Below are positions 5,311 through 23,068 of a stretch of DNA of 64,000 bases, one piece after another (position 1 is the stretch's first letter; the number at the start of each line of letters is the position of its first letter). The position numbers and the translations under genes were made by a program. Source of the stretch: Nitrospirota bacterium (GTDB lineage Bacteria; Nitrospirota; JACRHJ01). Location of the stretch: NCBI GenBank assembly GCA_963845245.1, contig CAWJRJ010000021.1:64001-128000 (forward strand). The letters are read 5' to 3'. The notes under the pieces are model-generated. The model worked only from the letters and a program-made list of their open reading frames with translations, did not search any database and was not told where the DNA came from.

Positions 5311-5458
5311 GTATAAAAGGTTAAATGAAGAAAAATTCACGAGGATATACGCATGGTCACAAATACATCTGGAATGCTTGTGTTTATGGGCGTAATCTTG
5401 TGAAATCTTGAATATAAAACTTAAGAATAATTTAAAAGTTTCCAACGAGGAGGAAGAA

Positions 5459-8400
5459 ATGACGAAGAGGATGAATAAATATTCCCGCAAGGCCCTTGCA
5501 ACCACAGGCATAATGCTGGTGATCGGGGTTCTCATATGGGCACTGATGGCGTTCGCGTATAATGCCACGGTAGCCACATATTCGGACGCCACGCATTCCA
5601 CTGGCAAGACGAGCTTCGGCCGCGGGGTAGATACGGTCTACACCAACATGACCGGCGGCATAGGTTCCAACACATACTATGCCGAATACTGGGGCCCGTC
5701 CACGAATGGCGGCACCGACATGGTGTACGAACCCGGAACGAGGAGCGCCCAGCTGACATCGCGGACGACCGGCGGCCTCAGTACTTCATACGTTACACAA
5801 GCTACGGACAATAGCGGCACCTGGCAGGCGAGGATATTGCACAACCCGCAGTATACCGCTCCGCAGGCGATAGTTATGGATGTCCCGGCCAAAGGGCAGG
5901 TTCTTACAGCCGGTACGGCAGTGACCCTCCAGTTCCATCTCGTTGACAGGAACGGCAACACGATGACCGGCACCGACTACCGCTCCAAGATGTACACATA
6001 CATGTCATACAACGGCTCAACAAGCTCCCCCGGCTGGCGCGCATACGCCGCCAACAACAGCAGGGCTACCTGGACGTTCAACTCAGGGACCGGCATGTAC
6101 ACCAAATCCTTTACGCCTGCCACGGCGAGCACCGGCCTCGCCCAGCTGCGCGTTTATATGTACAACTGGTGGGGCACGACCAACGGCGCGATTGAGACCG
6201 GTGACGCCTATTCCATAAGCGGCTCCACCTCGAACGACCTCTATACACAGGAGTTCTGGTATGCGACCGGCGGCACCACGACCCAGACCAACGCATTTAA
6301 TATAGTCAGCGTTGACAGCATGAACCCGAAGTTCGTGGCAAACCCGGGCGTGCCCACGATTAACTACACCTATTACTTCGACATATTCGACGGCAACGGC
6401 AACGCTGTAACAAGCGGCATCACATCATGGACGAACGTATGCCGTGGCGCAGCCGCATACGTTACCGCCGGCACACAGCCGACGGCTACGGTTTATGCCG
6501 CACCCGCATATGACGCAACCTCCGGGCACTGGAAGGTAACCTGGACGCTGCCCGCTCCCGGCAAATACGGCATTGACCTCAGGGCTACCCGCGGCAACCA
6601 GGTGAGGATGGAGGATGTCGTCCAGTACGCGGCATCAAGCGCGTTCAGCATGCTAGGCGACGTCACCCCGCCTGCAAACGTAGCTTTCGGCACGGTTACC
6701 CCGTCAGACAACAGGGTAACGCTTAACTGGACAAACCCGACCACAGACCAGGGCGGCGGCGCATTGACCGGGTTCAACGGCATCATCATACTTCGGAACC
6801 AGAACAGCCCGGTACCAACGGGCCCTTCAACAGGGCAGGAATACAGCGTGGACGGCTCAAATTCTCCATTGCCTCCTTATGGTCCGCGCCCGAACTCCAT
6901 TGGAACGAGCAGCGTCGTATATATAGGTAACGGTACGCAATACGCCGACGGCGACCCTTGCGGCGTACCTCTTACAAACGACACAATAACATATTATTAT
7001 AAGGCATATTCTTTTGACCAGTACTACAACTATTCTACCGGCATAGAGGTGTCGAGCACACCACATGACGGAGTCGCAATCGGGCCTGTGACAATTACCG
7101 GCGTTACTGCCGGCGACCAGCAGAACACCATCAACTGGATCAACCCGAGCAGGTGCGACTTCAAGGGAGTCGTGGTAAGGTACAGCACGGTTTCGTTCCC
7201 GACCGTGTGCAGCATTTCCCCATCTGCATACACTGAAACCAGCAACGGCAACCTTGTAACATATCCTGTAGGCACCGGTGTCAAGCCCGGCGGAACGCCT
7301 GGAGGAGCCGACAGCATCCCGCACACAAACCTTACAAACGGCTTTACGTATTACTATACAGTATGGGCTTACGACGACGAAGTAACGCCGTTATACAGCG
7401 CCGCGGCGAGCCCGGCGACCTATGCATCCCCGCATGACGTTACGGCGCCAGCACAGATCACAAGCCTGAGTGTTGTGGGTGGCTCTACGAACGCTTTCGG
7501 GTGCACGCTCTCCTGGACGGCCACAGGCGACGACGGGATGGTCGGGACTGCGACAAAATATGATATAAGATATTCGAAGAGCCCGATTTACATCTCAGGG
7601 GATCCGGTAGCTACCGCCACCAACTGGAACAATGCATGGGAGGCCGTAGGCACGCCCTTCCCACAGCCAATGGTCTCTGGGACGGTACAGACATATGACG
7701 TCGCCGGCCTTTCGCCGCTGACGCAGTACTATTTTGCCATCAGGGTTGCGGACGAAGTTCCCAACTGGTCTGGTGTATCCATAACTAATGCCTCGACGAC
7801 GACCCTGTGCAACCCGAAGATTTCGGCGTGCAACCAGTGCCACCTGATGCCGCCTGACGACGAACTGCCTGGCGCGCACCCGCGCGGCACCGGCAATATC
7901 GGCAACCATGACCTCCCCATACATGCGGGACAGGGCGGCGCAGACCAGTGCGACGTCTGCCACGCAGATGGCAACGTATGGCGCAACAACACGACGCTCT
8001 ACCAGGTCACGCACCAGAACGGTGTGATAGACATAAACGGCCCCGGCATGATCGGCAACGAGTGGGAGCGCACCCAGGTCCCCCCGCAAGGCGGCACGTT
8101 CTACCCATCGACCACCGTTGTATACAAGTTCAAGAACTACTCCTCGGGCGTAGGCTACAAACAGACGACGGGCTACTGCCAGAACACGTACTGCCACGGC
8201 TCCGGCCTTTCTTCCCCGATGTGGGGCCAGGGGACAATAGTCTGCGGCGAATACTGCCACGAGACCCCGCCCGCGACAGGACGCCACGTCAAGCATTACC
8301 ACCCCGGCCAGAGTTACGTCAACTTCGGTCCGGCCTCGGTCAAAGTAAGCGGCTATACCAATGGAGAAGGCGTAATCGACTCTTCGGACGACGGAACCAT

Positions 8401-11400
8401 AGGCTGGAGCCCGGCGGCTACGGCCAACTCGATGCCGCTGCCTGTTGGTAGCAACAGGGATTTGCGGTACGCCACTTACATATCCTCCTCGAACGGCTCA
8501 ACCAAAACCTTCAACGTGGGCAACGGGATATGGTATGTCACCGTCTGCGTAGGCGATTCGTTTGTTGCAAAAACGAAGCAGACCGTTATGGCATCCGGTG
8601 ACGGCGGGGCCTCCTGGGTCAAGCTTATAGACAACTTTGACACCATGCCACAGAAGCTCTACAAAAAGGCGGTCGACATACCGGTGTTGGTAACGGGCAG
8701 CAGCAATCTGCGGATAAAGATAGGCAATGGCAGCAATCCGACACAGCTTTGTTACCTTATAATAAACAGTACGCCAGAAGCCCCGAAGTCGAATAACACC
8801 CTGTTAAAGAACACGGCTACGGAGTATGGTTTCTCGTGCGGCAAGTGCCACACCGACGATACGACCCAGGCGAGGCATACAAGCCACGTCGACGGGCCGG
8901 TACAGAGAGGCATAAGGGACGCCGAGAACGCATTTGACGGCAACTCAAACCCCAAGAACCCCCTCGGGCTGTACACTTCAGATGTAGCGTTATTCGGCAA
9001 CATATCGACATATATCGACGGCCAGGGCTACCCCTACACCAACGGCCGCGGCTGCAAAAACCTGTACTGCCACGGTTCCACGCTGCATGCTGGCGGCAGC
9101 AACCATACGCCGACATGGAAGGACGGATACATAGACGTGACCGGGGCCTCGATCTGCGGGTCGTGCCACGATGCGGGCTATGCGGACACCACCCCGTTGT
9201 CAAACATTACCACCGGGTCGCATACAAAACACACGAATAACACCTACGCATACAGGTTCGACTGCTACAAGTGCCATAACAGGACGGTTCTGCAGAAAGA
9301 CCCTGCAAACGGCAATAAAATAAAGATCGCCAACAAGATCTATCACGTAAACGGCCAAGCGGACGTTTACTTTGACCCGACCGACAACACGATGCTGTTT
9401 GGCAAGTACTCGACCTCTCAAAAGACGTGCTACAACGTCTACTGCCACTCGAACGGTCTCCTGGATAAGGCGGACAAGCCTATAAGCTGGGCAACGAAAT
9501 ATGCGACTCCGCAGTGGGCCAGCGGCTCAAAGACCTGCAACTACTGCCATGGCACCAGCAGGCCTGACGGCATGCCGGACTATGCGAACTTCGTGAACAG
9601 CACTTCTGGAACTCCCAACAGTCATCCCAAGCATGTGGACGAGAACAAGCTCGGCTGCTCCAAGTGCCACTACAACACCACCAGGAACAACGGCGCCAGC
9701 ATCTATACGACGATGCAGCCCTCGCTCCATGTGAACGGCATAGCCGACGTGACGTTCGATTCGGAGAACAACAACGGGACGTTCAACGGCTCATTCGACC
9801 ATGCCAACCAGCAGTGTTCAGGCACTTACTGCCATGGCCGTAGCTCACCGCCACAATGGGGCGGCGTGGTTGACTGCGGTAGCTGTCACGGAGTCAGCCC
9901 AACGAACCCGAACCCAGGCATCGGCGCGCACCTCATACATAACAACGGCGCCTTCAGCCTTGTCACCAGTGTCGTCACCAACGCATCGAGCAGCACGACT
10001 TACAATTTCACGTGCAACTTCTGCCACTTCAGCAGGACACACGGCGGCGGCGAGTACATAACGGGCGTGCAGACGGCTGAAACGAATTTCAACACCGTCA
10101 CCCCGACAAACGGCTACAACAACAATGGCGCAACATATACGCGCGGTACGGCGACATTGACCGATACAAGTAACTGGCACTACTCCGCCGGAACCTGCGC
10201 AAACACCAAGTGTCACAGCAGCAACAGCACCGGTGGCGCACCGAACAACGCTTTTGTCACCTGGACCAGCAAGTTCGTAGGTACATCAAGAGAGTGCTAC
10301 CAGTGCCACAACGGCGACGCGAGCGCGCCCGCCGGCAGAAGGATGAAGAGCGGTGCGCATGCGATGCATGTATTTACCTCCGTATACAGGAGGTCATGTG
10401 AGGAGTGCCACGCATTGACGGCTTCTTTAAACACCGTCGCCGACAAGTCTAAGCATGTAAACGGCACGGTTGATGTGAGCATCCTCCCGGCATACGGCGG
10501 CACTTTCGACAGCTCCAAGAACTGCAGTAACGTCTATTGCCACTCAAACGCCAACCCGTCGGCATGGGGCACGGGCACGGTATACTACAAGTCGATGAAC
10601 TGGAACACCGGTCCGGCCACCACCTGCACCAGTTGCCACAGCAACAATCATGTTGTCGGCGGTGACGGAGTCAGGTCTGAAGATCAGACGCTTTCGTTCA
10701 ACCACAGGAAGCACCTGAACCCGGCCACCGACTCGCTGCTTGGCGGCTACGGCTCCAGGATCGGCTGCACGAACTGCCATAACCTGACGGCGAAGACCAA
10801 TACATCCCTATATACAAGCATTGTGCCGTCTAACCATAACAATATGAACAAGGACATCTACTTCTCGACCAGCTTCTTCACCATGTCCGGCGTAAACACC
10901 GTTTACGGTGGCGGCGTTAACGGTACTGCATACTGGGGTCAGTGGAACACCCCTAACTCCGGCAGCTGTACTGTCATATGCCACTCAGACGCGCGCGGCG
11001 GAGACCCGCTGGTGTTCCCGAACTGGTCAACGACTCAGGGCTCGTATGGCTGTACGTCGTGCCACGCGGCCGACGCGACTACGTTCGCGCTGCCGAACTA
11101 CACCGGCAACGACAGCCACGAGAAGCACGTGAGCAACGGGGTTACCTGCAACACCTGCCACCGTCTGACGGCAGGCAACAACGCTGGGACGCCGTTCATA
11201 AACGCATCAGGCTTTACTTCCCACCATGTCAACGGCAGCGCGGGCAACGACGTGAAACTTTCTGTCATAGGCAATTATTCCACGGTGTCGAGGTCGTGCT
11301 CAAGCCTGAGTTGCCATGGGCACAGGGTCTGGGGTCAGCATTATGCTTCGAGCTGCAACAGCTGCCACGCCGCGCCGCCCGCGTACGCCCAGCACACGTT

Positions 11401-14400
11401 CCACAGCGGCCAGACGGGTGTAACAGCGAACCTCAATACCGACACCTCGAACGCCACTACCTACAAGTTCGGCTGCGGTAAATGCCATACCCTGGCCGCT
11501 ACTTCTCATAACAGCGGCAACGTCTCGTTGTACCAGACCGCGGAGGTAAAGTTCGACGCGACGGTCAACCCGGTGAACTCGTTGGGCAAATACACCACGC
11601 TCGGCGCGTTATGGGCTACCGATGCCCAGGGCAAGACGTACACTGCCGGTACCTGCAAGAACCTCTACTGCCACAGCAACGGCCAGACAGGCACTTATGC
11701 GAAGTACAGTTCCGTCAGGTGGAATACGACGGCTGTCTACTGCACAAGCTGCCACGGCGACGCGACGGCAGGGACTCTTTCAACGCCGCACAACAAGCAC
11801 GTGAACACACTTGCGGCAGGCAGCTATAACTTCGGTTGCGTGCAGTGCCACAACAGGACTGTTGCCAGCAACTCCGCGATCAGCAACAAGGCGAACCACG
11901 TCAACGGTGTCAAGGACGTGTTCTTCAAGAAGTTCTCATCGGTGGCGTTCGGCAACAAGACCGGTTCGTACAATACGGTAAACTGCTCGAACACCTACTG
12001 CCACAGCGACGGGAACGGCACGTCAAAGACGCCGACGTGGGCGAGCGGGACTATAAACTGCGCGAGCTGCCACAACTACACGGTTGCGTCCGGCTCGGAA
12101 ATCACGACGGGCAAACACACGCAGCATATCCACAACGGCAACCTTGGCACCTACAGGTGTGTAGACTGCCACAGCGACACGGTTATGGCGAACAACTCCA
12201 CCATAATCTACACGAACGGCACGCACGTGAACGGCGTCAAGAACCTCAACTTCCTTGACAAGTCGTTGAACAACTTCACGGGCGCGTATGTTACGGCAAC
12301 CAAGACCTGCCGCAACAACTACTGCCATAGCTCCGGCCAGGCCAAGAGCGGCACCGGCTCGTTCGCCAACCTCTCCACGCCGGTATTCAGGACCACCGCC
12401 GTATGGACCGGTGGTGCGCTTGACTGCAAGGGTTGTCACGGCGCGGACACCGGCTTCACCAGCCAGTTCGGCGAACCGAACTACACCAACAGGTCCACGG
12501 CAAGCAGGGCATGGTACAACGGCCACGCGAAGCACGTGAAGAGCGTGACCGATTGCAATAAGTGTCATAACCTGACGACCGCCGACGGTGTTAGCATACT
12601 GGCCGGAGGCATGCACATCAACGGCAGCAGGGACGTCAACTTCAACCTGACACTGTTACCGGGCGCTTCATACAACAGCACGAGGAAGATGTGCACCGTG
12701 CCTACCTGCCACACAGGCACGGTAAGGTGGGGCGGCACGGTCCCGAACAGCTGCCAGAGCTGCCATGCGGACATGGGCGCTGGTAAATACACGAACCACA
12801 GCACGACCGGCAAGCACGCAAAGCATACGAATTCGACAACATACAAGTTCGCATGCGAGAACTGCCACAAGACGATGGACACCTCCGGCAACACGACTCA
12901 TGCTGGTGGTAACGTATCAACATATCAGACGGCGCAGGTGGCCTTCAGGACCAACTCCACCACCTGGGATTACGTGACCTACGACGGGGCCGGTACGCAG
13001 TTCAAGTATATAAGGATCGACTCGATGTACGGCACGACCGTGACACCGATATACAAGGCGGTCTCTACGACCAGCCCGCTCTCCGACAGCGTGGTGGCCA
13101 GCCGCAAGTTTACGCAGGGCAGGTGCTCGAACGTGTGGTGCCACTCTGACGGCCACAAGTTCGGCAACACGAGTACCGTATTCGTGAAGTATGCGAACTG
13201 GTCTACTGCGGAGACGACAAACTGCCGCAGCTGCCACGCTGGCGATAAGTCTGCTGCGCCGACGATGTCATCGGGCAAGCATACGAACCACATTAATAAC
13301 GGCAACCTCGGCAATTTCACCTGCTCGCGGTGCCACACGGACACGGTAAGGGGCAACTCGACCGTATACAACTATGACTACCACGTGAACGGAGTGAAGA
13401 ACATAAACTTCACCTCTATAGTGCAGGCAAACTATACCGGAGCCTACGTATCGGCTACCAGCACCTGCCGCAACGTGTACTGCCATAGCTCGGGTACGAA
13501 GTACACCAGCATGACAAACGCCACTTCCTCGCCTACGTTCAGGACCCCGACGTGGAGCGACACGGCCTGGGCCAGTAAGTGCAAGGGCTGCCACGGCGCG
13601 GACAGCGGCTTCACCAGCAAGTTCGGCGAGCCTAACTATGCGAACAGGTCAACGGCGAGCAGGGCCTGGTTTAACGGTCATTACGTGTCCAGCCACGTCA
13701 GTGTAGCAGCCGACTGCTTCAAGTGCCACGCTGCCACGGTTTTGAGTAACGGCACTTCCATCAACACATCGGGCAAGCACCTTAACGGGTTCAGGAACGT
13801 CTCGTTCACGGCAGGCGGCACTTATGACGCCACGAACAAACGTTGCAGCAACACCGCGACGGGTTGCCACGGCACGACCACGATGCGTTGGGGCGGTACT
13901 GGCACCTGCCAGACATGCCATGCGACCACCGGGACCGAGGTAAACGACTACGTATATGGCAACGGCACACAGGCCACCATAAGCATGACCCAGTACACCT
14001 CGATAGGCCACGGCAGGAAGATAGGCAGGTATGCCTACAGCAACCAGTCCGGCGCATCGAGCGCGAACCACAGCGCGGCGAGGAAGGTATCTGACTGCTC
14101 GACCTGCCATGACTCGACAGTGCTGCACAATATGACTTCCGGTGCGACGCCGAACTTCTTCAGGCTCAAGGGCGGCGGCGACCCGAACGCGCTATGCTCA
14201 TCCTGCCACTCGACGACTACTGAGGCGCACCACAACCAGGCCAACACCGGCGGCAACGCCAACTGGGCCATACTGACGCCGAAATGCGTGGACTGCCATG
14301 ACCCGCACGGAGACACAGGCGCAAACGGCAGGAGCAATGCGTACATGATCGGAGGTATGATAAACTACACCTCCAACAGCAAGTACGACGGCAGGCCTGC

Positions 14401-17243
14401 CGGTACCAACGGCAGCCTCATGAGGGCAGTGAACTTCCCTGCCAACGTGAGCCAGCCCACGGTGCTTAACTACACCAGCTTCGTGAGGCCCACTTACGAC
14501 GGCCTGTGCCAGATATGCCATATAAGGGGCGTCGATTCGGCTGCTCCCGGCGGCACTACATCACCGATACACTTCAACAGGGCGCTTTATACGACCCATA
14601 ACAACCCGACAGTCTGCACAAGCTGCCATAGCCACTCCACCGGCTTCCAGGGCGCAGGCGGCGACTGCAAGGGCTGCCACGGCACCGGCGGGTCCGCTAC
14701 ATTAGCTGGTAGACGCGACATGCAGCTAGAGTTCAACAACTCGTCCTCGCATCATATTGTAGGCAACTGGACGAACATCACGAAGTATGAATGTGCGGCA
14801 TGCCACGCAGAGGGCAACTATGCCGACGGCTCCCTCTCCGCACTACATACGGGTACACATGCAAAGCCTGTTTACCTGAAGAAGTGGAATGCGGCTATCA
14901 CTACGGGCAGCAACGGTACCTTTACCGTGATAAGCACAAACAGCCTCGCTACCAACAGCAGCGTGCTTACGCCGTTCTGCCTCGGCTGCCACAGCGACCA
15001 GAACAACGCCGCCACGCCGTTTGTGGCCTCAGGCGACACCAGGAACCCGACCAGCTACTCATGGGACAACAACTCTGTCGGGAGCAAGTACAGCAACGTA
15101 TCGACTACGCCGTGGGGCAAGTTCAACTCCTCGACGTACAACGTCGTCCCGGCCGACCAGGTCACCAAGGCATTCAGCCCGCACGGCCAGACCGGCAAGA
15201 ACGACATGCCAAAGAGCCTTAACTCGTTTGCCATCTACTCGGGCACCAAGGCCGTCCAGTGCTACGACTGCCATAACGCCCATGCCTCTAACGTCACCGG
15301 TGGCACTTCCTACACCAGCGGCAACAACGAGGGTGGCATAATCAAGACGACCTCCACCTATGTCCCGAGGGCGGGCGGCTCTACGGCTACGAAGAACGCG
15401 TACAGCTCAAGCGCCGACCTCTGCTTTGACTGCCACCTGGGCGAGAACGGCTCCGGCGCACCGAAGACCTACAGGGACTACGGTATACCGAGCGGCAAGG
15501 CGATTGTCGGCTACTACGACCGCGTGGGCATGAACTTCAGCAACTACAGCTCATCGAGGTGGTCAACAAGCGACGTGTGGCGCGGCAGCTTTGCCTACAA
15601 AGACGGCACGTTCAAGGGCGGCCACTTCGGCAACTCGCAGGGCTACCTACAGGAGGGCCTGGGCACCATGGGTACAAAGGTCAACGGCAACTGCACCGCC
15701 TGCCACGACCCGCACGGCGTTTCGCCTGCCATCAAGAGGGGCTTCACGAAGCTGACGCGTACAGTCTACGCGGCCGCCAGCACCGAAACCGACCCGGTCC
15801 TTTCGGGCAGCTATACCGGAACGGCGAACGCCTCGAACGTAAACGTCATACAGATTGTGGCCGGCGGCGCATTAGGCACGGCTACCTACAGGGCATCCAC
15901 CAACGCCGGCAAGACCTGGGGAAGCACTACCAGCACCAGCACCGCCTGGGCGGCTAACGGTATTACCGCTACATTCCAGGCCGGTAACTACAGCGTTGAC
16001 GATACATGGACCTTCCTGTCAGGCGCAAACCCGAACTTCATGGCCCCGGCACTGAAGGGTACATGGATGCACTCCCCGTACAAGGAGGACCGTACGCCGA
16101 GGAACACGTATACTACGGACAAGGGCAACGGCGAGGCCACTGCAAGGCTTGCAGGCATCTTTAAGGCCGACGACTACACCACCTATGCGGACCAGACGGG
16201 CTGGACTACCGCCAAGAGGTACTGGGATGACACTCACCGGCGGCACCAGCGCCGCAGGCACCAACAGGAAGGTCGGCGGCCCGGCCCCGAGGGCGAACCC
16301 GGACTTCAAGACCGGCTCTTACGTGCCGGGCTACAACACCCCTGCGATACAGGGCGACGGCTTCGGCCGCGGCCCGGTACGCAGCTACGGTGCCGGCTTC
16401 ACGAACGTGACCAGCATGAGGGGCTGGAACGGCTACTTCATAGACGAGAACACATTCGGGCAGACTACTGCCAAGCAATACGGGTATGTCAATCCGTATA
16501 GCAATATGAGTACGGCCAACCCGGCTGCATGGAACCCCGGCAACTTCGCCGGCCTGTGCCTGAAATGCCATGCATGGCAGAAGAACACGGCGAGTTCCAT
16601 ATCGCTTTCGAACGTGACCTCGGCGAACCTTGCCACTGGCACGCAGAGGGTGACGACCAAGGTCCACGAGACGGTCGCGAACCTGGGCACCATAACGGTC
16701 AACCTCTTCCAGCGTAACGAGGGCACCGGCTCATACACATCAATAGCCTGCCGACTGGTGGGTATGCATATGAGCCAGTACAACGGCAACGACGGCTCCG
16801 CCAGCGAGACCGGCGGACCAACCGGTGCGGCCGCAGCTAAGCTACACTGCTGTCTATGGTATCCTGGATACGACGGGCCAATCCGGAACCAGCGACCAGC
16901 GCAGCCATTACTACCGCTGGGGCGTGAGCGGCAGCGCGCAGAAGACCGCTGGCACAGATACAGGCCAAGTACCACCAGTTCCCGTGCAGCAAGTGCCATA
17001 CGCCGCATGCCTCCAGGCTGCCGAGGCTGATGAAGACGAACTGCCTCGACAACGACAACGTCGGCACGGCGCACACCACGATGGGCTATGTCGGCAACAC
17101 CGCCACCATGAGCGGCACCGCTGCTACGAACCTCTGGGGCGCGCTTGCCAGGAACGTGGCCTGCCACAGCACCAAGATAGGCTACGCTCGGCAGCTGCGC
17201 TACGTACACCCCCGGCGGCTGGAACAACAAGACGCCCTGGTAA
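5459..17243 (+). CDS. Giant surface multiheme cytochrome c (~3,900 aa) with N-terminal Ig/FN3-like domains; C-terminus reconstructed across several indels after ~16230
   Basis: GAGGAGG RBS before ATG 5459; signal/TM segment; manual count 41 CxxCH, 13 CxxxxCH, 2 CxxxCH and 1 Cx6CH in ORF 5408-16501; continues in shifted frames (GLCLKCH, HQFPCSKCHTPHASRLPRLMKTNCLD) to GWNNKTPW-stop at 17241-17243. Confidence 0.92.
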
Positions 17244-17254
17244 AGACTAAAGCA

Positions 17255-17276
17255 GGGGCCCCACGTACGGGGCCCC
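17255..17276 (+). other. GC-rich hairpin between the giant cytochrome and the peptide gene
   Basis: GGGGCCCC-acgtac-GGGGCCCC; no U-tract, so read-through is plausible. Confidence 0.5.
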
Positions 17277-17316
17277 GAAATATAAACAAAAAGTAAACAG
17301 GAAAGGAGGAAAACCA

Positions 17317-17376
17317 ATGAAGATAAAGTACACAGCTCCGAAAGTGGTAGCCAGCTCAAGCGTCCATCCCTGCTAA
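17317..17376 (+). CDS. 19-aa small peptide MKIKYTAPKVVASSSVHPC (RiPP-precursor-like); below the ORF-track cutoff
   Basis: AAAGGAGG Shine-Dalgarno 7 nt before ATG 17317; TAA at 17374-17376; YxxP leader-like motif; terminator follows. Confidence 0.75.
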   Translation: MKIKYTAPKVVASSSVHPC

Positions 17377-17399
17377 AAACAGACTGAAGTTGATATAAT

Positions 17400-17441
17400 C
17401 AAGGGCTGATGGTAAAATATAACCATCAGCCCTTGTCTTTT
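17400..17441 (+). terminator. Intrinsic terminator after the peptide gene
   Basis: CAAGGGCTGATGGT-aaaatata-ACCATCAGCCCTTG (14-bp perfect stem) followed by TCTTTT. Confidence 0.8.
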
Positions 17442-17474
17442 ATACAGGGATAGACCCTCTAAAGGAGATGTCAG

Positions 17475-18426
17475 ATGAAAAAAATCCTTGTGACTATAAG
17501 TATTGTTCTTGCCTGCTTGTCCGTTATGCCAGCTTATGCCAGGGCAGACAAGATTTATGTTGCAATGACTGATGGCAGCAGCGTCGAGGTGGTGGACCCT
17601 GCCCTGCTTGACTCGTGGGGTGATATACAAACAGGCAAGAATCCCATGATGCTCGCAGCCTCAAAGGACGGCAGCTACGTATTTGTTTCGATTTATGGTG
17701 AAGGCAAGGTGCAGGTAATAGATACCAAGACTGATAAGGTTGTCAATGATATCAATCTGGGTCAGGGGCCACACGCGATGGATATCTCACCGGACGGCGG
17801 CTTGCTCGCGGCCGGAATACTGGACGAACCGAAAGTCTACATTATCGACGCCAAGGAGTTCAAGGTGATAAAAGCGATAACGACCCTTGGGGGCGTCTCC
17901 GAGGTGAAGTTTTCGCCGGACGGAAAAAAACTCTATGTCGTGCAACGGGAAAAACCCATGCAGGTAATTGATATGGCTAATATGGAGCCTGTTGCGGAAA
18001 TGAATATTCCAACTGAGACATATGACATCGCATTTTCAAAATCAGGCGATAAATTATATGTGAACAGCACCGATGACGGCAACATGTCGATTATCGACAT
18101 TAAGACATCGGCCGTTTTGAAGAAAATACCGGCCGGCAAGACGGGGCTTGCAGTGTCTCCCGACGGTAATGAGATATGGTTTGGGGGGCCGGGGGACAAG
18201 ATAACGGTTTACTCCCTTACCAAGAACGCGGTGATAGCGACTCTACCGCAGGATTGCGACAGGAACTTCACGTTGCTGTTCAGCCCGGACGGGAAGACCG
18301 TTCTGGCTACTCCCGCCGGGAAAGATAACCTCAAATTATATGTTTACGATGCAATCAAAAAAACAAGGAAAGGGGTAGGTCGCACTCAAAGGCAACCCCC
18401 GCGGATTGGCATACATTACAAAATAA
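17475..18426 (+). CDS. Secreted YVTN/YncE-type beta-propeller protein (probable frameshift near 18378)
   Basis: AAGGAG RBS; signal ending ARA; repeated (F/I/V)SPDG..YV blades; shifted frame gives VALKGNPRGLAYITK-stop at 18426, which removes the overlap with the convergent gene. Confidence 0.85.
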
Positions 18427-18440
18427 TTGGATTATACGGG

Positions 18441-19490
18441 CTAACGGTTTATCGCTCCTTTATATCCCGCTTTTAAAGCCGCCGCCGCATCAAGTTCCTT
18501 GGATGCGGCTTCTTTTTGACCAACCTTCAAATACGCATAGGCAAGGTCGTAGTGGGTAGCCGCGTCCTTCGGGTATTCCTTCAAAAGTGTCAGATAGAGC
18601 GGTATGGCCTCCTTGAACGAACGCTGTTCCATCTTCCATGCGTCCGCGCGGTCAAGCCAGAGCTTCGGAGGCGCGCCGTTCAGCATCTTGGGGTTGGCGA
18701 AGAGTTCCGCGAAATAATCTGCAAGAAACCTGAACTTGTAAGGCACCAGCCCGTTTTTGTTGGATGCGCTGATCGATACCATGTCAGAGCTTAGACCCGA
18801 CTCCTGTAGTGTCTTGAAGAAACCTGACACGAGCGAGAGAATTCGGGTCTTTTTCTCATCCAGGTAGATATCAGAGAAAAAGGATAAATCTATATCCAGG
18901 AGTACCGGCTTGTCGATTTTCGGCAGGTCTTGGAGAGACACGATGAAAACAGGGATGCCGCTAATCGTCCCAGAGGCGACCTTGCCGTTCAGGACCAGTT
19001 TGTCGAACTCTTGTGACTGGGAGGGGTATGTCTTTTTTAGGTGCTCCTTAAAACCGTCCAGGCTTTCCTTGGTGAGACTTGTAAGGCTCGGTATGACCCA
19101 ATAAACATCCTTTACAAGGCCGAGCCTGGTCGCCGCAAATACTGTATTTTCTGCGGAGTAGGCCGGTTTCCCGTCTGACACATTACCCATGGACAGAAGC
19201 TTGTCCGAATCTCCCTTGCCAGCCGTATCTTTTAGTGACTTCAGAATGTTTTCGTCCAATGGCGCGAGTCCATCCATGTATGATATGTGGACAAGAGTGC
19301 GGTCTTTGGCGCCGTTTTGTGTCCAGTAAGGTATGTTGAAGTTCTCCTGTTCGAGAAGCTGCACCTTGATGGGGTCAACCGCCACATTTAATACCGGCAG
19401 TTGAGGCGCTTTTGGTTTTTCCTTCTCCTTTGCGCACGAGGATGAAAACAGGAGGATGAAAGCGGCAAACATCAGAAGGGACTTTTTCAT
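18441..19490 (-). CDS. Lipoprotein with degenerate UPF0489-like domain and C-terminal TPR
   Basis: Lipobox FSSSC; RTLVHISYMD, VYWVIP, LLDIDLSFF segments; TPR-like YPKDAATHYDLAYAYLKVGQKEAA. Confidence 0.6.
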   Translation of the reverse strand: MKKSLLMFAAFILLFSSSCAKEKEKPKAPQLPVLNVAVDPIKVQLLEQENFNIPYWTQNGAKDRTLVHISYMDGLAPLDENILKSLKDTAGKGDSDKLLSMGNVSDGKPAYSAENTVFAATRLGLVKDVYWVIPSLTSLTKESLDGFKEHLKKTYPSQSQEFDKLVLNGKVASGTISGIPVFIVSLQDLPKIDKPVLLDIDLSFFSDIYLDEKKTRILSLVSGFFKTLQESGLSSDMVSISASNKNGLVPYKFRFLADYFAELFANPKMLNGAPPKLWLDRADAWKMEQRSFKEAIPLYLTLLKEYPKDAATHYDLAYAYLKVGQKEAASKELDAAAALKAGYKGAINR

Positions 19491-21513: not shown

Positions 21514-23068
21514 TTACTTCGCGTACTCGACGTAACGGGCTTCCCTTATCACGGTGACCCTTATCTGGCCGGGATACGCCATCTCTTCTTCGATCTTCTT
21601 CGCTATCTCCCTGGAGATATGGGCGGCTGATACGTCGTCCACATCCTCGGGCTTTACTATCACGCGTATCTCGCGGCCTGCCTGAATTGCGAAACACTTC
21701 TCGACGCCGGGGAACGAGGTGGCTACCTCTTCGAGCTTTTCGAGGCGTTTTACGTATGTCTCAAGCGTCTCGCGCCTTGCGCCCGGCCTTGCAGCCGATA
21801 GGGCGTCCGCAGCCGCCACGAGCACGGACTCGACACAGGTGAATTCCACGTCGCCGTGATGTGCCATAATGGCGTTTAATACCTTGGCATTCTCTCCGTA
21901 CTTCTTGGCAAGGTCAAACCCGATGCTGGCGTGCGTGCCTTCGATCTCGTGGTCTACAGCCTTGCCCAGGTCGTGCAGAAGACCCGCGCGCTTGGCGAGC
22001 TTTACGTCCACGCCGAGTTCAGCCGCCATGACGCCCGCGAGGAATGCGACCTCCCTTGAGTGCATGAGCACGTTCTGGCCGTAGCTGGTGCGGTACTTGA
22101 GCCTGCCCAGGAGCTTTATAACGTCCGGGTGTATGCCGTGGAGCGTAAGGTCGAAGGCAGCCTTCTCGCCTTCCTCACGCATTGTTTCGTCCAGTTCCTT
22201 ACGTACCTTGTCAACGACTTCTTCTATACGGCCCGGGATGTATGCGTCCGTCCGCCATGAGCCGCTCGATGGATTGGCGTGCGATCTCTCTGCGTACGGG
22301 GTCGAAGCCTGATACTATTACGGCCTGCGGCGTGTCGTCGATTATGAGGTCTATGCCGGTCGCGGCCTCGAGCGCACGGATGTTCCTGCCCTCGCGGCCT
22401 ATTATGCGGCCCTTCATCTCGTCGTTGGGGAGGTTGACCAGGGATACGGTGGTCTCGGCCACGTAGTCGCTGGCGTAACGCTGGATGGCAAGCGCCATTA
22501 TGTCCTTGGACTTCTTGTCCGCAGTGGCCTTGGATTCGTCCTCTATGCGCTTTATCATCTTGGCGCCTTCGTGGGTGGCCTCCTCCTCCATGCGCAGGAG
22601 CAGCTCCCTCTTGGCGTCCTCGGAGCTCATCCCGGCGATACGCTCAAGCTGCCTTACCTGCTCAAGTATGCCGTCCTCGTACTTCTTTTCCTTTTCAAGC
22701 AGGACATTCTCGCGGTTTGCGAGGTCCTTTTCCTTTTTCAGGATGTCCGAATCCCTCTTGTCGAACTGTTCGGACTTCTTGTCGAGATGTTCCTCTTTCT
22801 GGACGAGGCGTTTCTCTGAGGCGTTAAGCTCGGTACGCCTGTCTTTTATCTCCTTCTCGAAGTCCGAACGCTGCTGGTAGAGCTTGTCCTTCGCTTCGAG
22901 AAGCAGTTCCTTCTTCTTCGTCTCGGCGTCGCGTTCCGCGTCCTTCAGCATCCTCTTGGCCTGCTCTTCGGCATCTTTTATCTTGGATTCCGCCATCCCC
23001 CGCTTTATCAGCATGCCGATCGCAAGGCCGACAACCCCAGCCACCGCTATCCAAATGTAATCAACATA
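21514..23068 (-). CDS. rny: Ribonuclease Y (frameshifts near 22200-22230; start approximate)
   Basis: N-terminal TM, coiled coil, KH motif [18 protein letters not shown] domain [33 protein letters not shown]. Confidence 0.95.

Follow-up and report, generated by a model that had tools for sequence, protein, structure and literature searches.

The DNA analysed here is a stretch of 64,000 nucleotides from a Nitrospirota bacterium (GenBank assembly GCA_963845245.1, contig CAWJRJ010000021.1, positions 64,001 to 128,000 of the forward strand), which is called the window in the following. Behind a gene for a giant multihaem cytochrome, it contains a gene of only 19 codons encoding a peptide which ends in His-Pro-Cys. 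The present analysis concerns this peptide, the family to which it belongs, and its connection to the GeoRSP proteins, a set defined by models for a PqqD-family peptide chaperone, a radical S-adenosylmethionine (SAM)/SPASM protein and a SPASM-domain protein. In the designations used below, G stands for a genome, with G000 being the genome of the window itself, C for a contig, with C21 being the contig of the window, and L for a fetched locus. The following features were identified at the locus, with coordinates given for the window:

17302-17309, + strand: Shine-Dalgarno sequence AAAGGAGG, read from the sequence, with GGAGG at 17305-17309 and a spacer of 7 nt to the ATG
17317-17376, + strand: peptide gene of 19 codons, MKIKYTAPKVVASSSVHPC plus TAA, with the ATG at 17317-17319 and the TAA at 17374-17376; a member of the type A family
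17317-17352, + strand: residues 1-12 (MKIKYTAPKVVA), the proposed recognition or leader part with the invariant residues Y5, P8, V10 and V11; putative boundary
17353-17373, + strand: residues 13-19 (SSSVHPC), the proposed core with the invariant C-terminal His-Pro-Cys; putative boundary and modification
17400-17435, to 17445 with the tail, + strand: intrinsic terminator, stem of 14 pairs (8 of them G-C), loop of 8, then TCTTTTATAC; from terminator search and folding
17255-17276, + strand: G+C hairpin of 8 pairs without a U tract, between the cytochrome stop and the Shine-Dalgarno sequence of the peptide gene; from folding
5408-17243, + strand: giant multihaem cytochrome gene, open from 5408 to 16501, then four frame changes to the TAA at 17241-17243
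17475-18476, + strand: next gene downstream of the peptide gene, preceded by a Shine-Dalgarno sequence of its own and coding for a secreted beta-propeller protein (Cytochrome D1 / YNCE-like repeats); listed as context only and not counted as part of the system

A preliminary description of this DNA had reported an uncalled open reading frame (ORF) of 19 codons with a near-ideal Shine-Dalgarno sequence, an ATG at 17317, a TAA ending at 17376 and a terminator of 14 bp, and all of these were confirmed in the sequence. The terminator, which folds with -26 to -27 kcal/mol (z -5.0), starts 23 nt after the stop codon. The hairpin in front of the peptide gene, said to be without a U tract, was likewise recovered by folding of 17255-17276, with 8 G-C pairs, -20.7 kcal/mol and z -4.43, and none of 200 shuffled sequences folded equally well. 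At this hairpin, no call was made in a terminator search of the + strand, and it is likely to be an RNA-stability or partial-pause element rather than a terminator. The peptide was also described as lying directly behind the giant cytochrome. This holds for its position, with the ATG 73 nt downstream of the cytochrome stop codon, whereas the called cytochrome frame ends early at 16501 and the remainder is reached only through four frame changes. Since no sigma-54-type promoter was found between the cytochrome stop and the ATG, a distance of 73 nt, cotranscription is probable, and the peptide gene, judged from its arrangement, probably is the last cistron of the giant cytochrome operon, ending at its own terminator.

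Similar signals surround the homologues. The Shine-Dalgarno sequences GGAGG, GGGGG or GGAGA precede the peptide copies displayed from other loci, and stem-loops with T runs were also identified downstream of the copies on G000:C24, G002 and G003. A beta-propeller gene follows the peptide copy in G002 as well; in G007, a convergent TPR gene is present instead.

A blastn comparison of positions 17200-17480 with 41 related genomes resulted in matches in six of them, and what these shared was confined to the Shine-Dalgarno sequence with the ORF (query positions 102-180) and to the end of the preceding cytochrome gene. The identical peptide of 19 residues is encoded in G002, G004 and G007 and at a second site in the window's own genome, and a version with one Ser-to-Thr exchange is encoded in G003. 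Within the window's family, six type A copies from five genera were compared, which differ pairwise at 0-9 of the 57 coding bases. All nucleotide differences are synonymous, with the exception of the single Ser-to-Thr exchange in G003, for which two nucleotides are changed. Serine 13 is encoded by AGC in some type A copies and by TCC in others, and the flanks beyond the Shine-Dalgarno sequence could not be aligned.

Because the differences are almost all synonymous, including the switch between the two serine codon families, while the flanks diverge, the comparison indicates that purifying selection acts on the amino-acid sequence of the peptide rather than on an RNA or DNA site. Conservation of the DNA without conservation of the codons, named in the preliminary description as a finding that would speak against a gene, is contradicted by this pattern of divergence. 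The same pattern bears on the explanation that the ORF is fortuitous and only lies within some other element, either a non-coding RNA that is conserved or a 3' repeat of cytochrome operons. Such an explanation is suggested by the tiny size of the ORF, by its absence from the output of any gene caller, and by the region around it, which is repeated on contig C24 at 82% identity. It is excluded by the substitutions, since the flanks diverge and the peptide stays identical; furthermore, length, start, Shine-Dalgarno sequence and stop are kept across two phyla, and no Rfam family reached its gathering score. For the window, an Rfam search of positions 16900-17800 gave only two sub-threshold matches, P26 with 20.4 bits (cut-off 36) and an internal ribosome entry site with 13.8 bits (cut-off 100). 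A chance ORF is thus considered vanishingly improbable, and the peptide is presumably translated in the cells.

The peptide family follows the consensus M-K/R-(0-3 residues)-Y-x-x-P-x-[VI]-[VI]-G/A-x-x-x-[VI]-H-P-C-stop, with 17-21 amino acids in total. Besides type A, a type B form was identified, with MNKIKYTKPLVVGGSSVHPC as an example, which is located 190 nt downstream of the type A copy on G000:C24 and is present as a solo copy in G002, G003 and G007. As proposed in the preliminary description, homologues were searched by pattern. With the degenerate pattern Y-x2-P-x-V-V-x4-V-H-P-C-stop, for which about two chance matches were expected by our own arithmetic, at least 124 stretches were matched in a collection of species-representative genomes, and the family was found in Desulfuromonadia and Nitrospirota. 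Among the matches listed, 79 loci with 83 distinct sites were present, nearly all from records of Desulfuromonadales/Geobacteraceae or Nitrospirota, and Geobacter hydrogenophilus DSM 13691 and Geobacter sp. OR-1 belong to the carriers.

From these loci and the earlier ones, 66 distinct peptides of 17-21 amino acids were obtained and used for a hidden Markov model (HMM). With the HMM, 19 of 301 sampled Nitrospirota genomes and 67 of 201 sampled genomes of Desulfuromonadia, the class of G. hydrogenophilus, were found to encode the peptide, in the latter mostly with two to six copies per genome. Since some columns had been forced by the degenerate pattern, 20 of the weakest HMM matches were inspected. 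In all 20, Y-x-x-P and H-P-C-stop are retained; isoleucine, threonine or serine may replace the paired valines, and the histidine is preceded by valine or isoleucine. Four more variants were obtained from Nitrospirota loci, each of them with the HPC-stop end. With codon-level conservation in other genera and the same family in two phyla, the proposed ORF is a genuine peptide gene.

In five cases that were examined, the peptide appeared as the C terminus of a longer open frame of 75-396 amino acids. These were rejected as fusions, because a Shine-Dalgarno sequence and an ATG immediately adjoin the peptide in all five and the upstream text is of low complexity and out of frame. In addition, contigs titled Acidithiobacillus, Chitinophagales, Kiloniellaceae and Phycisphaerae (L027, L036, L048 and L099) carry the peptide, and L036 also carries the GeoRSP radical SAM gene. 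These are probably mis-binned contigs of Desulfuromonadales or Nitrospirota; they may also reflect transfer.

The GeoRSP set is covered by three models: TIGR04302 for the PqqD-family peptide chaperone (cut-off 100), TIGR04303 for the radical SAM/SPASM protein (cut-off 400) and TIGR04304 for the SPASM-domain protein (cut-off 300). The peptide is tightly linked to the genes of this set, both by position and by presence and absence. When the neighbours in 24 long loci were annotated, a TIGR04303 radical SAM gene with 430-463 bits was found directly upstream of the peptide gene in three Desulfuromonadales loci, with genes for a YedE-type transporter and a cysteine-desulfurase family protein in its surroundings. 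In L073, the gene order is YedE, TPR, GeoRSP PqqD, radical SAM, peptide, SPASM-only protein and cysteine-desulfurase family protein. The SPASM-only protein encoded downstream of the peptide in the Desulfuromonadales loci matches TIGR04304 weakly (86-105 bits), and the TIGR04304 partners in three Nitrospirota loci score 350, 212 and 189 bits. Intact GeoRSP radical SAM proteins contain the CxxxCxxC motif and the SPASM cysteines, and the SPASM-only partner is without CxxxCxxC.

This arrangement recurs. Among 38 upstream ORFs of 150-520 amino acids, ten matched TIGR04303 over the cut-off and one more was cut by a contig end; three are sigma-54 response regulators and one is a YedE. In a subgroup of 33 Desulfuromonadia genomes with radical SAM scores of 430-472 bits, 27 have a listed peptide match within 210 nt downstream of the radical SAM gene, one is without the peptide and five have listed matches elsewhere, 25 peptide matches of the class sample not being among those listed with coordinates. 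The same radical SAM-peptide arrangement is present in G030 from Nitrospirota. In the Geobacter-type genomes, whose radical SAM proteins score 550-690 bits, the distances are larger: among the listed copies, some lie on the radical SAM contig 8-35 kb away in G301, G306, G310, G320, G338, G354, G364, G410 and G490, and in others, for example G388, the listed copies lie hundreds of kilobases from the radical SAM gene.

The presence and absence of the two genes was distributed as follows, the counts including related genomes which are not independent of each other, with positives that span five Nitrospirota families and the other phylum:

Desulfuromonadia, 201 genomes: both genes in 66, peptide only in 1 (G473), radical SAM only in 1 (G409), neither in 133
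Nitrospirota, 301 genomes: both genes in 14, peptide only in 5, radical SAM only in 1, neither in 281
Nitrospirota genomes with peptide only, with completeness: G002 93%, G166 83%, G210 100%, G250 86%, G256 74%
Nitrospirota genome with radical SAM only, with completeness: G235 86%

Both genes are therefore present in 66 of the 68 positive Desulfuromonadia genomes and in 14 of the 20 positive Nitrospirota genomes. The GeoRSP radical SAM gene itself is present in 67 of 201 sampled Desulfuromonadia (about a third) and is scattered among the Nitrospirota, with 15 of 301.

A search of the window's own genome for PqqD and radical SAM/SPASM genes, also proposed beforehand, located a GeoRSP PqqD on contig C16 (L156:8805-9242) with 124 bits against the cut-off of 100. 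Immediately downstream of it, the radical SAM protein is encoded in two frames, with 95.6 bits for model positions 3-96 and 283.6 bits for positions 135-325. In G007, the orthologous pair is intact, with 106 bits for PqqD and 454 bits for the radical SAM protein. The GeoRSP cassette in the window's family is preceded by genes for beta-helix/NosD-like and TPR proteins. None of the six listed TIGR04303 matches (of ten in the own genome) is located on contig C21, and the window copy of the peptide gene is not physically linked to the cassette on C16; in other genomes, the linkage holds. The GeoRSP PqqD and radical SAM/SPASM proteins, which had been named as candidate partners in the preliminary description, are thus supported by adjacency, by co-occurrence and by their presence in the same genome.

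The binding of the peptide to the PqqD protein was modelled with residues 38-142 of G007 PqqD and the peptide of 19 amino acids, which is identical in G007 and in the window. The models scored 0.67, 0.67 and 0.65, compared to 0.20 for the best of three controls; the mark used for this score was reached by 51 of 78 solved complexes and by 2 of 108 mismatched pairs, and the calibration set contains no protein below 30 residues. The runs agreed in at least 97% of the contacts, and the predicted local distance difference test value of the partner was 74-75. Contacts were modelled for peptide residues 2-17, with the least error for A7, P8, K9, V10 and V11 against PqqD residues 86-95 and 125-133. 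Structures of complexes between leader peptides and PqqD proteins or other recognition elements for ribosomally synthesized and post-translationally modified peptides (RiPPs) have been solved, so that the good score may mirror a likeness to known complexes. The model supports, without proving it, a binding mode in which the GeoRSP PqqD would grip the Y-x-x-P-x-V-V stretch, and the prediction is in line with the earlier assignment of Y-x-x-P as a leader motif bound by PqqD-like proteins.

Taken together, the peptide is most probably a ribosomal precursor and the substrate of the GeoRSP radical SAM system. In the proposed mechanism, the small PqqD-family chaperone would bind the N-terminal two thirds of the peptide, with Y5, P8, V10 and V11, as an added strand, and would offer the C-terminal S-x-x-V-H-P-Cys-COOH to the radical SAM/SPASM enzyme for radical modification. 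The chemistry would be a change at the terminal cysteine or a crosslink from it, and in the window's genome chaperone and enzyme would be supplied from another contig (G000:C16). MftC works on the last two residues, Val-Tyr, of the short mycofactocin precursor held by a PqqD-like partner, and SPASM enzymes can make thioethers. By analogy to MftC, which modifies the final two residues of a short PqqD-held peptide, chemistry at the terminal cysteine is the best guess. By score, the nearest characterised relatives of the GeoRSP radical SAM protein are AhbD/NirJ-type enzymes, MftC and PqqE. We infer the leader/core boundary, the PqqD binding, the chemistry and any role for the cytochromes; a crosslinked His-Pro-Cys end serving extracellular electron transfer, as suggested in the preliminary description, may likewise be envisaged.

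Several observations weigh against this assignment. In the window itself, neither radical SAM nor PqqD was identified by Pfam on 16 ORFs or by NCBIfam at E<=1e-40 on 30 ORFs, in agreement with the earlier statement that no maturase is visible there. The radical SAM gene on C16 is split by a frameshift in this assembly, and neither piece reaches 400 bits. The third GeoRSP protein was not borne out: for TIGR04304, no match over the cut-off was found in the own genome, the best one being the SPASM domain of the radical SAM protein with 58.9 bits against 300. For a RiPP, about 12 residues would make a short leader, and neither a protease nor an exporter was present in the annotated neighbourhoods. 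In five of the 19 peptide-positive Nitrospirota genomes, one of them rated 100% complete, no GeoRSP radical SAM protein was found at E<=1e-60, and four of the five were also without any GeoRSP PqqD match. In the window's family, the peptide gene lies beside the radical SAM gene in none of the eight radical SAM loci examined. Finally, co-occurrence would be equally expected if the peptide and GeoRSP shared a larger system without being substrate and enzyme.

In G002, one of the five genomes with peptide only, an ORF with a weak PqqD-like match (26 bits) was identified immediately upstream of a divergent radical SAM/SPASM gene (93 bits with TIGR04303). This pair, at G002:C4:4892-6039, could be a replacement maturase.

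The last of these objections leads to a different explanation, in which the peptide is an unmodified small protein, for example a tiny subunit, a haem or metal ligand acting through His17 and Cys19, or an assembly factor of giant cytochrome or repeat-protein complexes, and GeoRSP acts elsewhere in the same larger pathway. The dispersed loci of the window's family and the five genomes lacking the enzyme are in favour of it. So is the genomic context: among 65 sites with at least 1.5 kb upstream, 18 follow an ORF of at least 800 amino acids with at least five haem motifs, five follow a smaller cytochrome, five a giant protein without haem motifs and 37 other genes, including the radical SAM gene; and the wider conserved neighbourhood comprises NosD-like beta-helix, CarboxypepD_reg, YedE and permease genes. 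On the other hand, in many genomes the peptide gene is located between the radical SAM gene and the SPASM-only gene, the adjoining PqqD family is named a peptide chaperone by NCBIfam and was modelled on the invariant stretch of the peptide, and the match in presence and absence is near perfect in the 201 Desulfuromonadia. With the peptide as substrate, the cassette is explained and no other candidate small ORF is needed. An unmodified subunit is therefore considered unlikely, and a GeoRSP precursor remains the preferred assignment.

The strong Shine-Dalgarno sequence, the tiny ORF and the terminator 23 nt past the stop also resemble an attenuator, in which stalling of the ribosome, perhaps at VHPC-stop, would control the following hairpin or terminator and hence the downstream genes. 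In arrest peptides, the amino-acid sequence is likewise conserved and the end frequently carries a motif with proline, which would agree with a regulatory leader or arrest peptide. However, such a function is very unlikely, because no consistent downstream gene is present, with the next gene in G007 being convergent, and because the ORF sits between two GeoRSP genes in many genomes. Further, the fold of the window terminator shows no competing or alternative pairing as known for ribosome-mediated attenuators, two different tandem copies on G000:C24 each have their own terminator, and the co-occurrence with the radical SAM gene would be left unexplained.

A peptide embedded in the GeoRSP cassette, or co-occurring with the TIGR04302, TIGR04303 and TIGR04304 genes, and a genome with both chaperone and enzyme agree with the GeoRSP system as defined. 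They differ from it in that the system is defined by proteins alone and that in the window's family TIGR04304 is absent beside the radical SAM gene and the peptide genes are located elsewhere. To our knowledge, the target of GeoRSP is listed as unknown. The closest parallel in logic is mycofactocin, in which a very short precursor (MftA), a separate PqqD-family chaperone (MftB) and MftC act together, with chemistry at the C terminus and a cofactor instead of an antibiotic as the product. The same three parts are present here, and the GeoRSP radical SAM proteins score 174-209 bits with the MftC model, which ranks second to fifth among their family matches. However, these scores are below the MftC cut-off of 265, the peptide ends in His-Pro-Cys and not in Gly-Val-Tyr like MftA, and its copies are dispersed behind cytochrome genes; no genes of the MftD, MftE or MftF type were present in the annotated neighbourhoods.

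Pyrroloquinoline quinone synthesis shares the precursor of about 20 residues (PqqA), the PqqD chaperone and a SPASM radical SAM enzyme (PqqE), and the GeoRSP PqqD proteins score 29-41 bits with PqqD models. In contrast to PqqA, the peptide is without Glu-x3-Tyr, the window peptide having no Glu at all, and PqqE scores are 119-147 bits against a cut-off of 381; neither pqqB nor pqqC was found in the annotated neighbourhoods. In lasso peptides, the leader with Y-x-x-P-x-L is bound by a PqqD-like recognition element, which resembles Y-x-x-P-x-[VI] in the peptide and the modelled contacts centred on P8-V11, and the GeoRSP PqqD proteins match lasso PqqD models weakly. However, the core of about seven residues, SSSVHPC, has no Asp or Glu for ring closure, and no lasso cyclase or leader peptidase is named among the annotated neighbours. 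Sactipeptide and ranthipeptide systems (PapB, AlbA and the SCIFF maturase) have in common the SPASM radical SAM enzyme and an invariant core cysteine, with 75-95 bits for the GeoRSP proteins against PapB and AlbA. Here, the scores fall far short of the cut-offs, the only cysteine of the peptide is usually the C-terminal one, the precursor is much shorter, and no exporter or protease was seen.

The genes around the peptide and the GeoRSP cassette form a recurring set. In four Geobacteraceae records (L029, L060, L065 and L092), the peptide gene is immediately preceded by a giant ORF of 2156-3296 amino acids without a CxxCH-type motif, so that the association extends to giant proteins with the appearance of secreted ones and is not restricted to cytochromes. 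Downstream of the peptide, genes for repeat scaffolds are often present, such as Ankyrin, CarboxypepD_reg, NosD-like beta-helix, beta-propeller, NHL, FG-GAP and HEAT. In L158, L159, L160 and L161 (Nitrospirota G154, G265, G165 and G030), the peptide and the GeoRSP genes are part of a conserved cluster of about 15 kb. It contains genes for CarboxypepD_reg, NosD-like beta-helix (830-850 amino acids), PhnD/OpuAC-like binding, ResB-like, YedE, ArsP or MFS permease, cupin, PqqD, radical SAM and SPASM proteins. A YedE-type selenium/sulfur transporter is encoded in eight annotated peptide or GeoRSP loci. Next to the cassette, genes are repeatedly found for cysteine-desulfurase or selenocysteine-lyase-like proteins, for NosD-like beta-helix proteins and for ArsP or MFS permeases.

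In L074 of Geobacter sp. OR-1 (positions 7638-11780), the peptide is located between rhodanese-domain genes and a YedE-type transporter, and one of the rhodanese proteins matches ExtH of the selenite/tellurite reduction operon with 150 bits, below the cut-off of 200.

The type B copies are found in a different surrounding, beside a histidine kinase gene and downstream of the gene for an NtrC-family sigma-54 activator, with HEAT-repeat and DUF1573 proteins encoded after the peptide. They are located at the following positions:

L014:19796-19855 (G000:C24)
L019:9968-10027 (G002:C12)
L020:9905-9964 (G007:C6)
L005:980-1039 (G003)

About 52 nt upstream of the type B start, a sigma-54-type -24/-12 element was identified; a strict pattern gave three sites compared to about 0.09 expected, all three from one lineage. 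In G002 and G003, the element was seen by eye with one deviation, and in the copy on G000:C24 the spacing is one base too long. All five type B copies inspected end at their own terminator.

The invariant His-Pro-Cys-COOH, the absence of a visible protease or exporter, the copies behind cytochromes and the YedE, desulfurase, rhodanese and NosD neighbours are compatible with a cofactor or a chalcogen or metal carrier. It is conceivable, but rather doubtful, that the mature GeoRSP peptide, instead of being an antibiotic, serves the outward-facing redox apparatus of metal-reducing bacteria as a small cofactor or as a carrier of sulfur, selenium or a metal. A peptide copy in each operon for a giant multihaem cytochrome or repeat protein would then allow synthesis in step with it, and sigma-54 two-component systems would activate other copies. 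The peptide might hand a chalcogen or metal to the cytochrome complexes or take it from them. For the window's genome, a role in selenium is a weak reading, because no SelD was found over the cut-off (43 bits against 125) in the assembly, which is rated 90% complete; YedE is present, split into pieces of 271 and 106 bits.

The plan of a short precursor, a PqqD protein and a SPASM radical SAM enzyme is known, as are the curated GeoRSP protein models; what is new is the peptide itself. For two variants of 20 amino acids, no family was found in Pfam and NCBIfam at E<=10, including the MftA and PqqA models, the window copy of 19 amino acids being below the minimum of 20 residues. Eight variants of 20 amino acids were absent from a collection of 15 billion proteins by exact look-up, and this collection may hold few proteins of such a short length. 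A literature search covering sources other than subscription journals did not find the GeoRSP system, its accessions or a peptide substrate. An assignment to TIGRFAM entries named 'geopeptide' and 'geopeptide radical SAM maturase' was considered and dropped as unsupported; the neighbouring radical SAM proteins match TIGR04303, and the word geopeptide was absent from the literature searched.

The peptide is unusual for its very small size, its invariant His-Pro-Cys end, its recurrent association with operons for giant multihaem cytochromes in two phyla and its solo copies driven by sigma-54. Peptides of 17-21 residues are likely too short for routine gene calling, and the family is a clear example of conserved genes which are invisible to automatic annotation. 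A concrete, testable candidate substrate makes the orphan GeoRSP enzymes a tractable biochemical problem, with G. hydrogenophilus DSM 13691 and Geobacter sp. OR-1 as cultured carriers among the matches. That copies repeatedly stand behind giant multihaem cytochrome genes, at the 3' end of the operons, in both phyla suggests that extracellular electron transfer or metalloid reduction has a small-molecule partner so far overlooked.

The remainder of the window from 29374 to 63704 codes for common housekeeping functions without an apparent connection to the peptide, namely complex I subunits (a NuoB/C/D fusion, E, F, G, H and L), RibF, GlyA, NrdR and Rnf subunits. The assembly contains a number of split genes. 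RNase Y is present as pieces of 277 and 222 amino acids (window 21514-23044, - strand), and the exonuclease VII large subunit as a piece of 162 amino acids; the GeoRSP radical SAM gene (G000:C16:161238-162244) and YedE (G000:C14:102374-103379) are each found in two frames. Because RNase Y, YedE and the cytochrome end are all affected, assembly indels are the likely cause of the gene breaks.

The open frame of the giant cytochrome from 5408 to 16501 codes for 3697 amino acids with 41 CxxCH and 13 CxxxxCH motifs. An intact paralogue of 3838 amino acids on contig C24 of the same genome was aligned by tblastn to 5432-17188 in frames 2, 3, 1 and 2, and the frame changes were located near 16250-16350, 16837, 16957 and 17190. 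The last kilobase or so is 75-92% identical to the C24 paralogue at the protein level, compared to 54% for the remainder, which points to gene conversion between the two operons at 16250-17243 or to an assembly chimera of two repeats.

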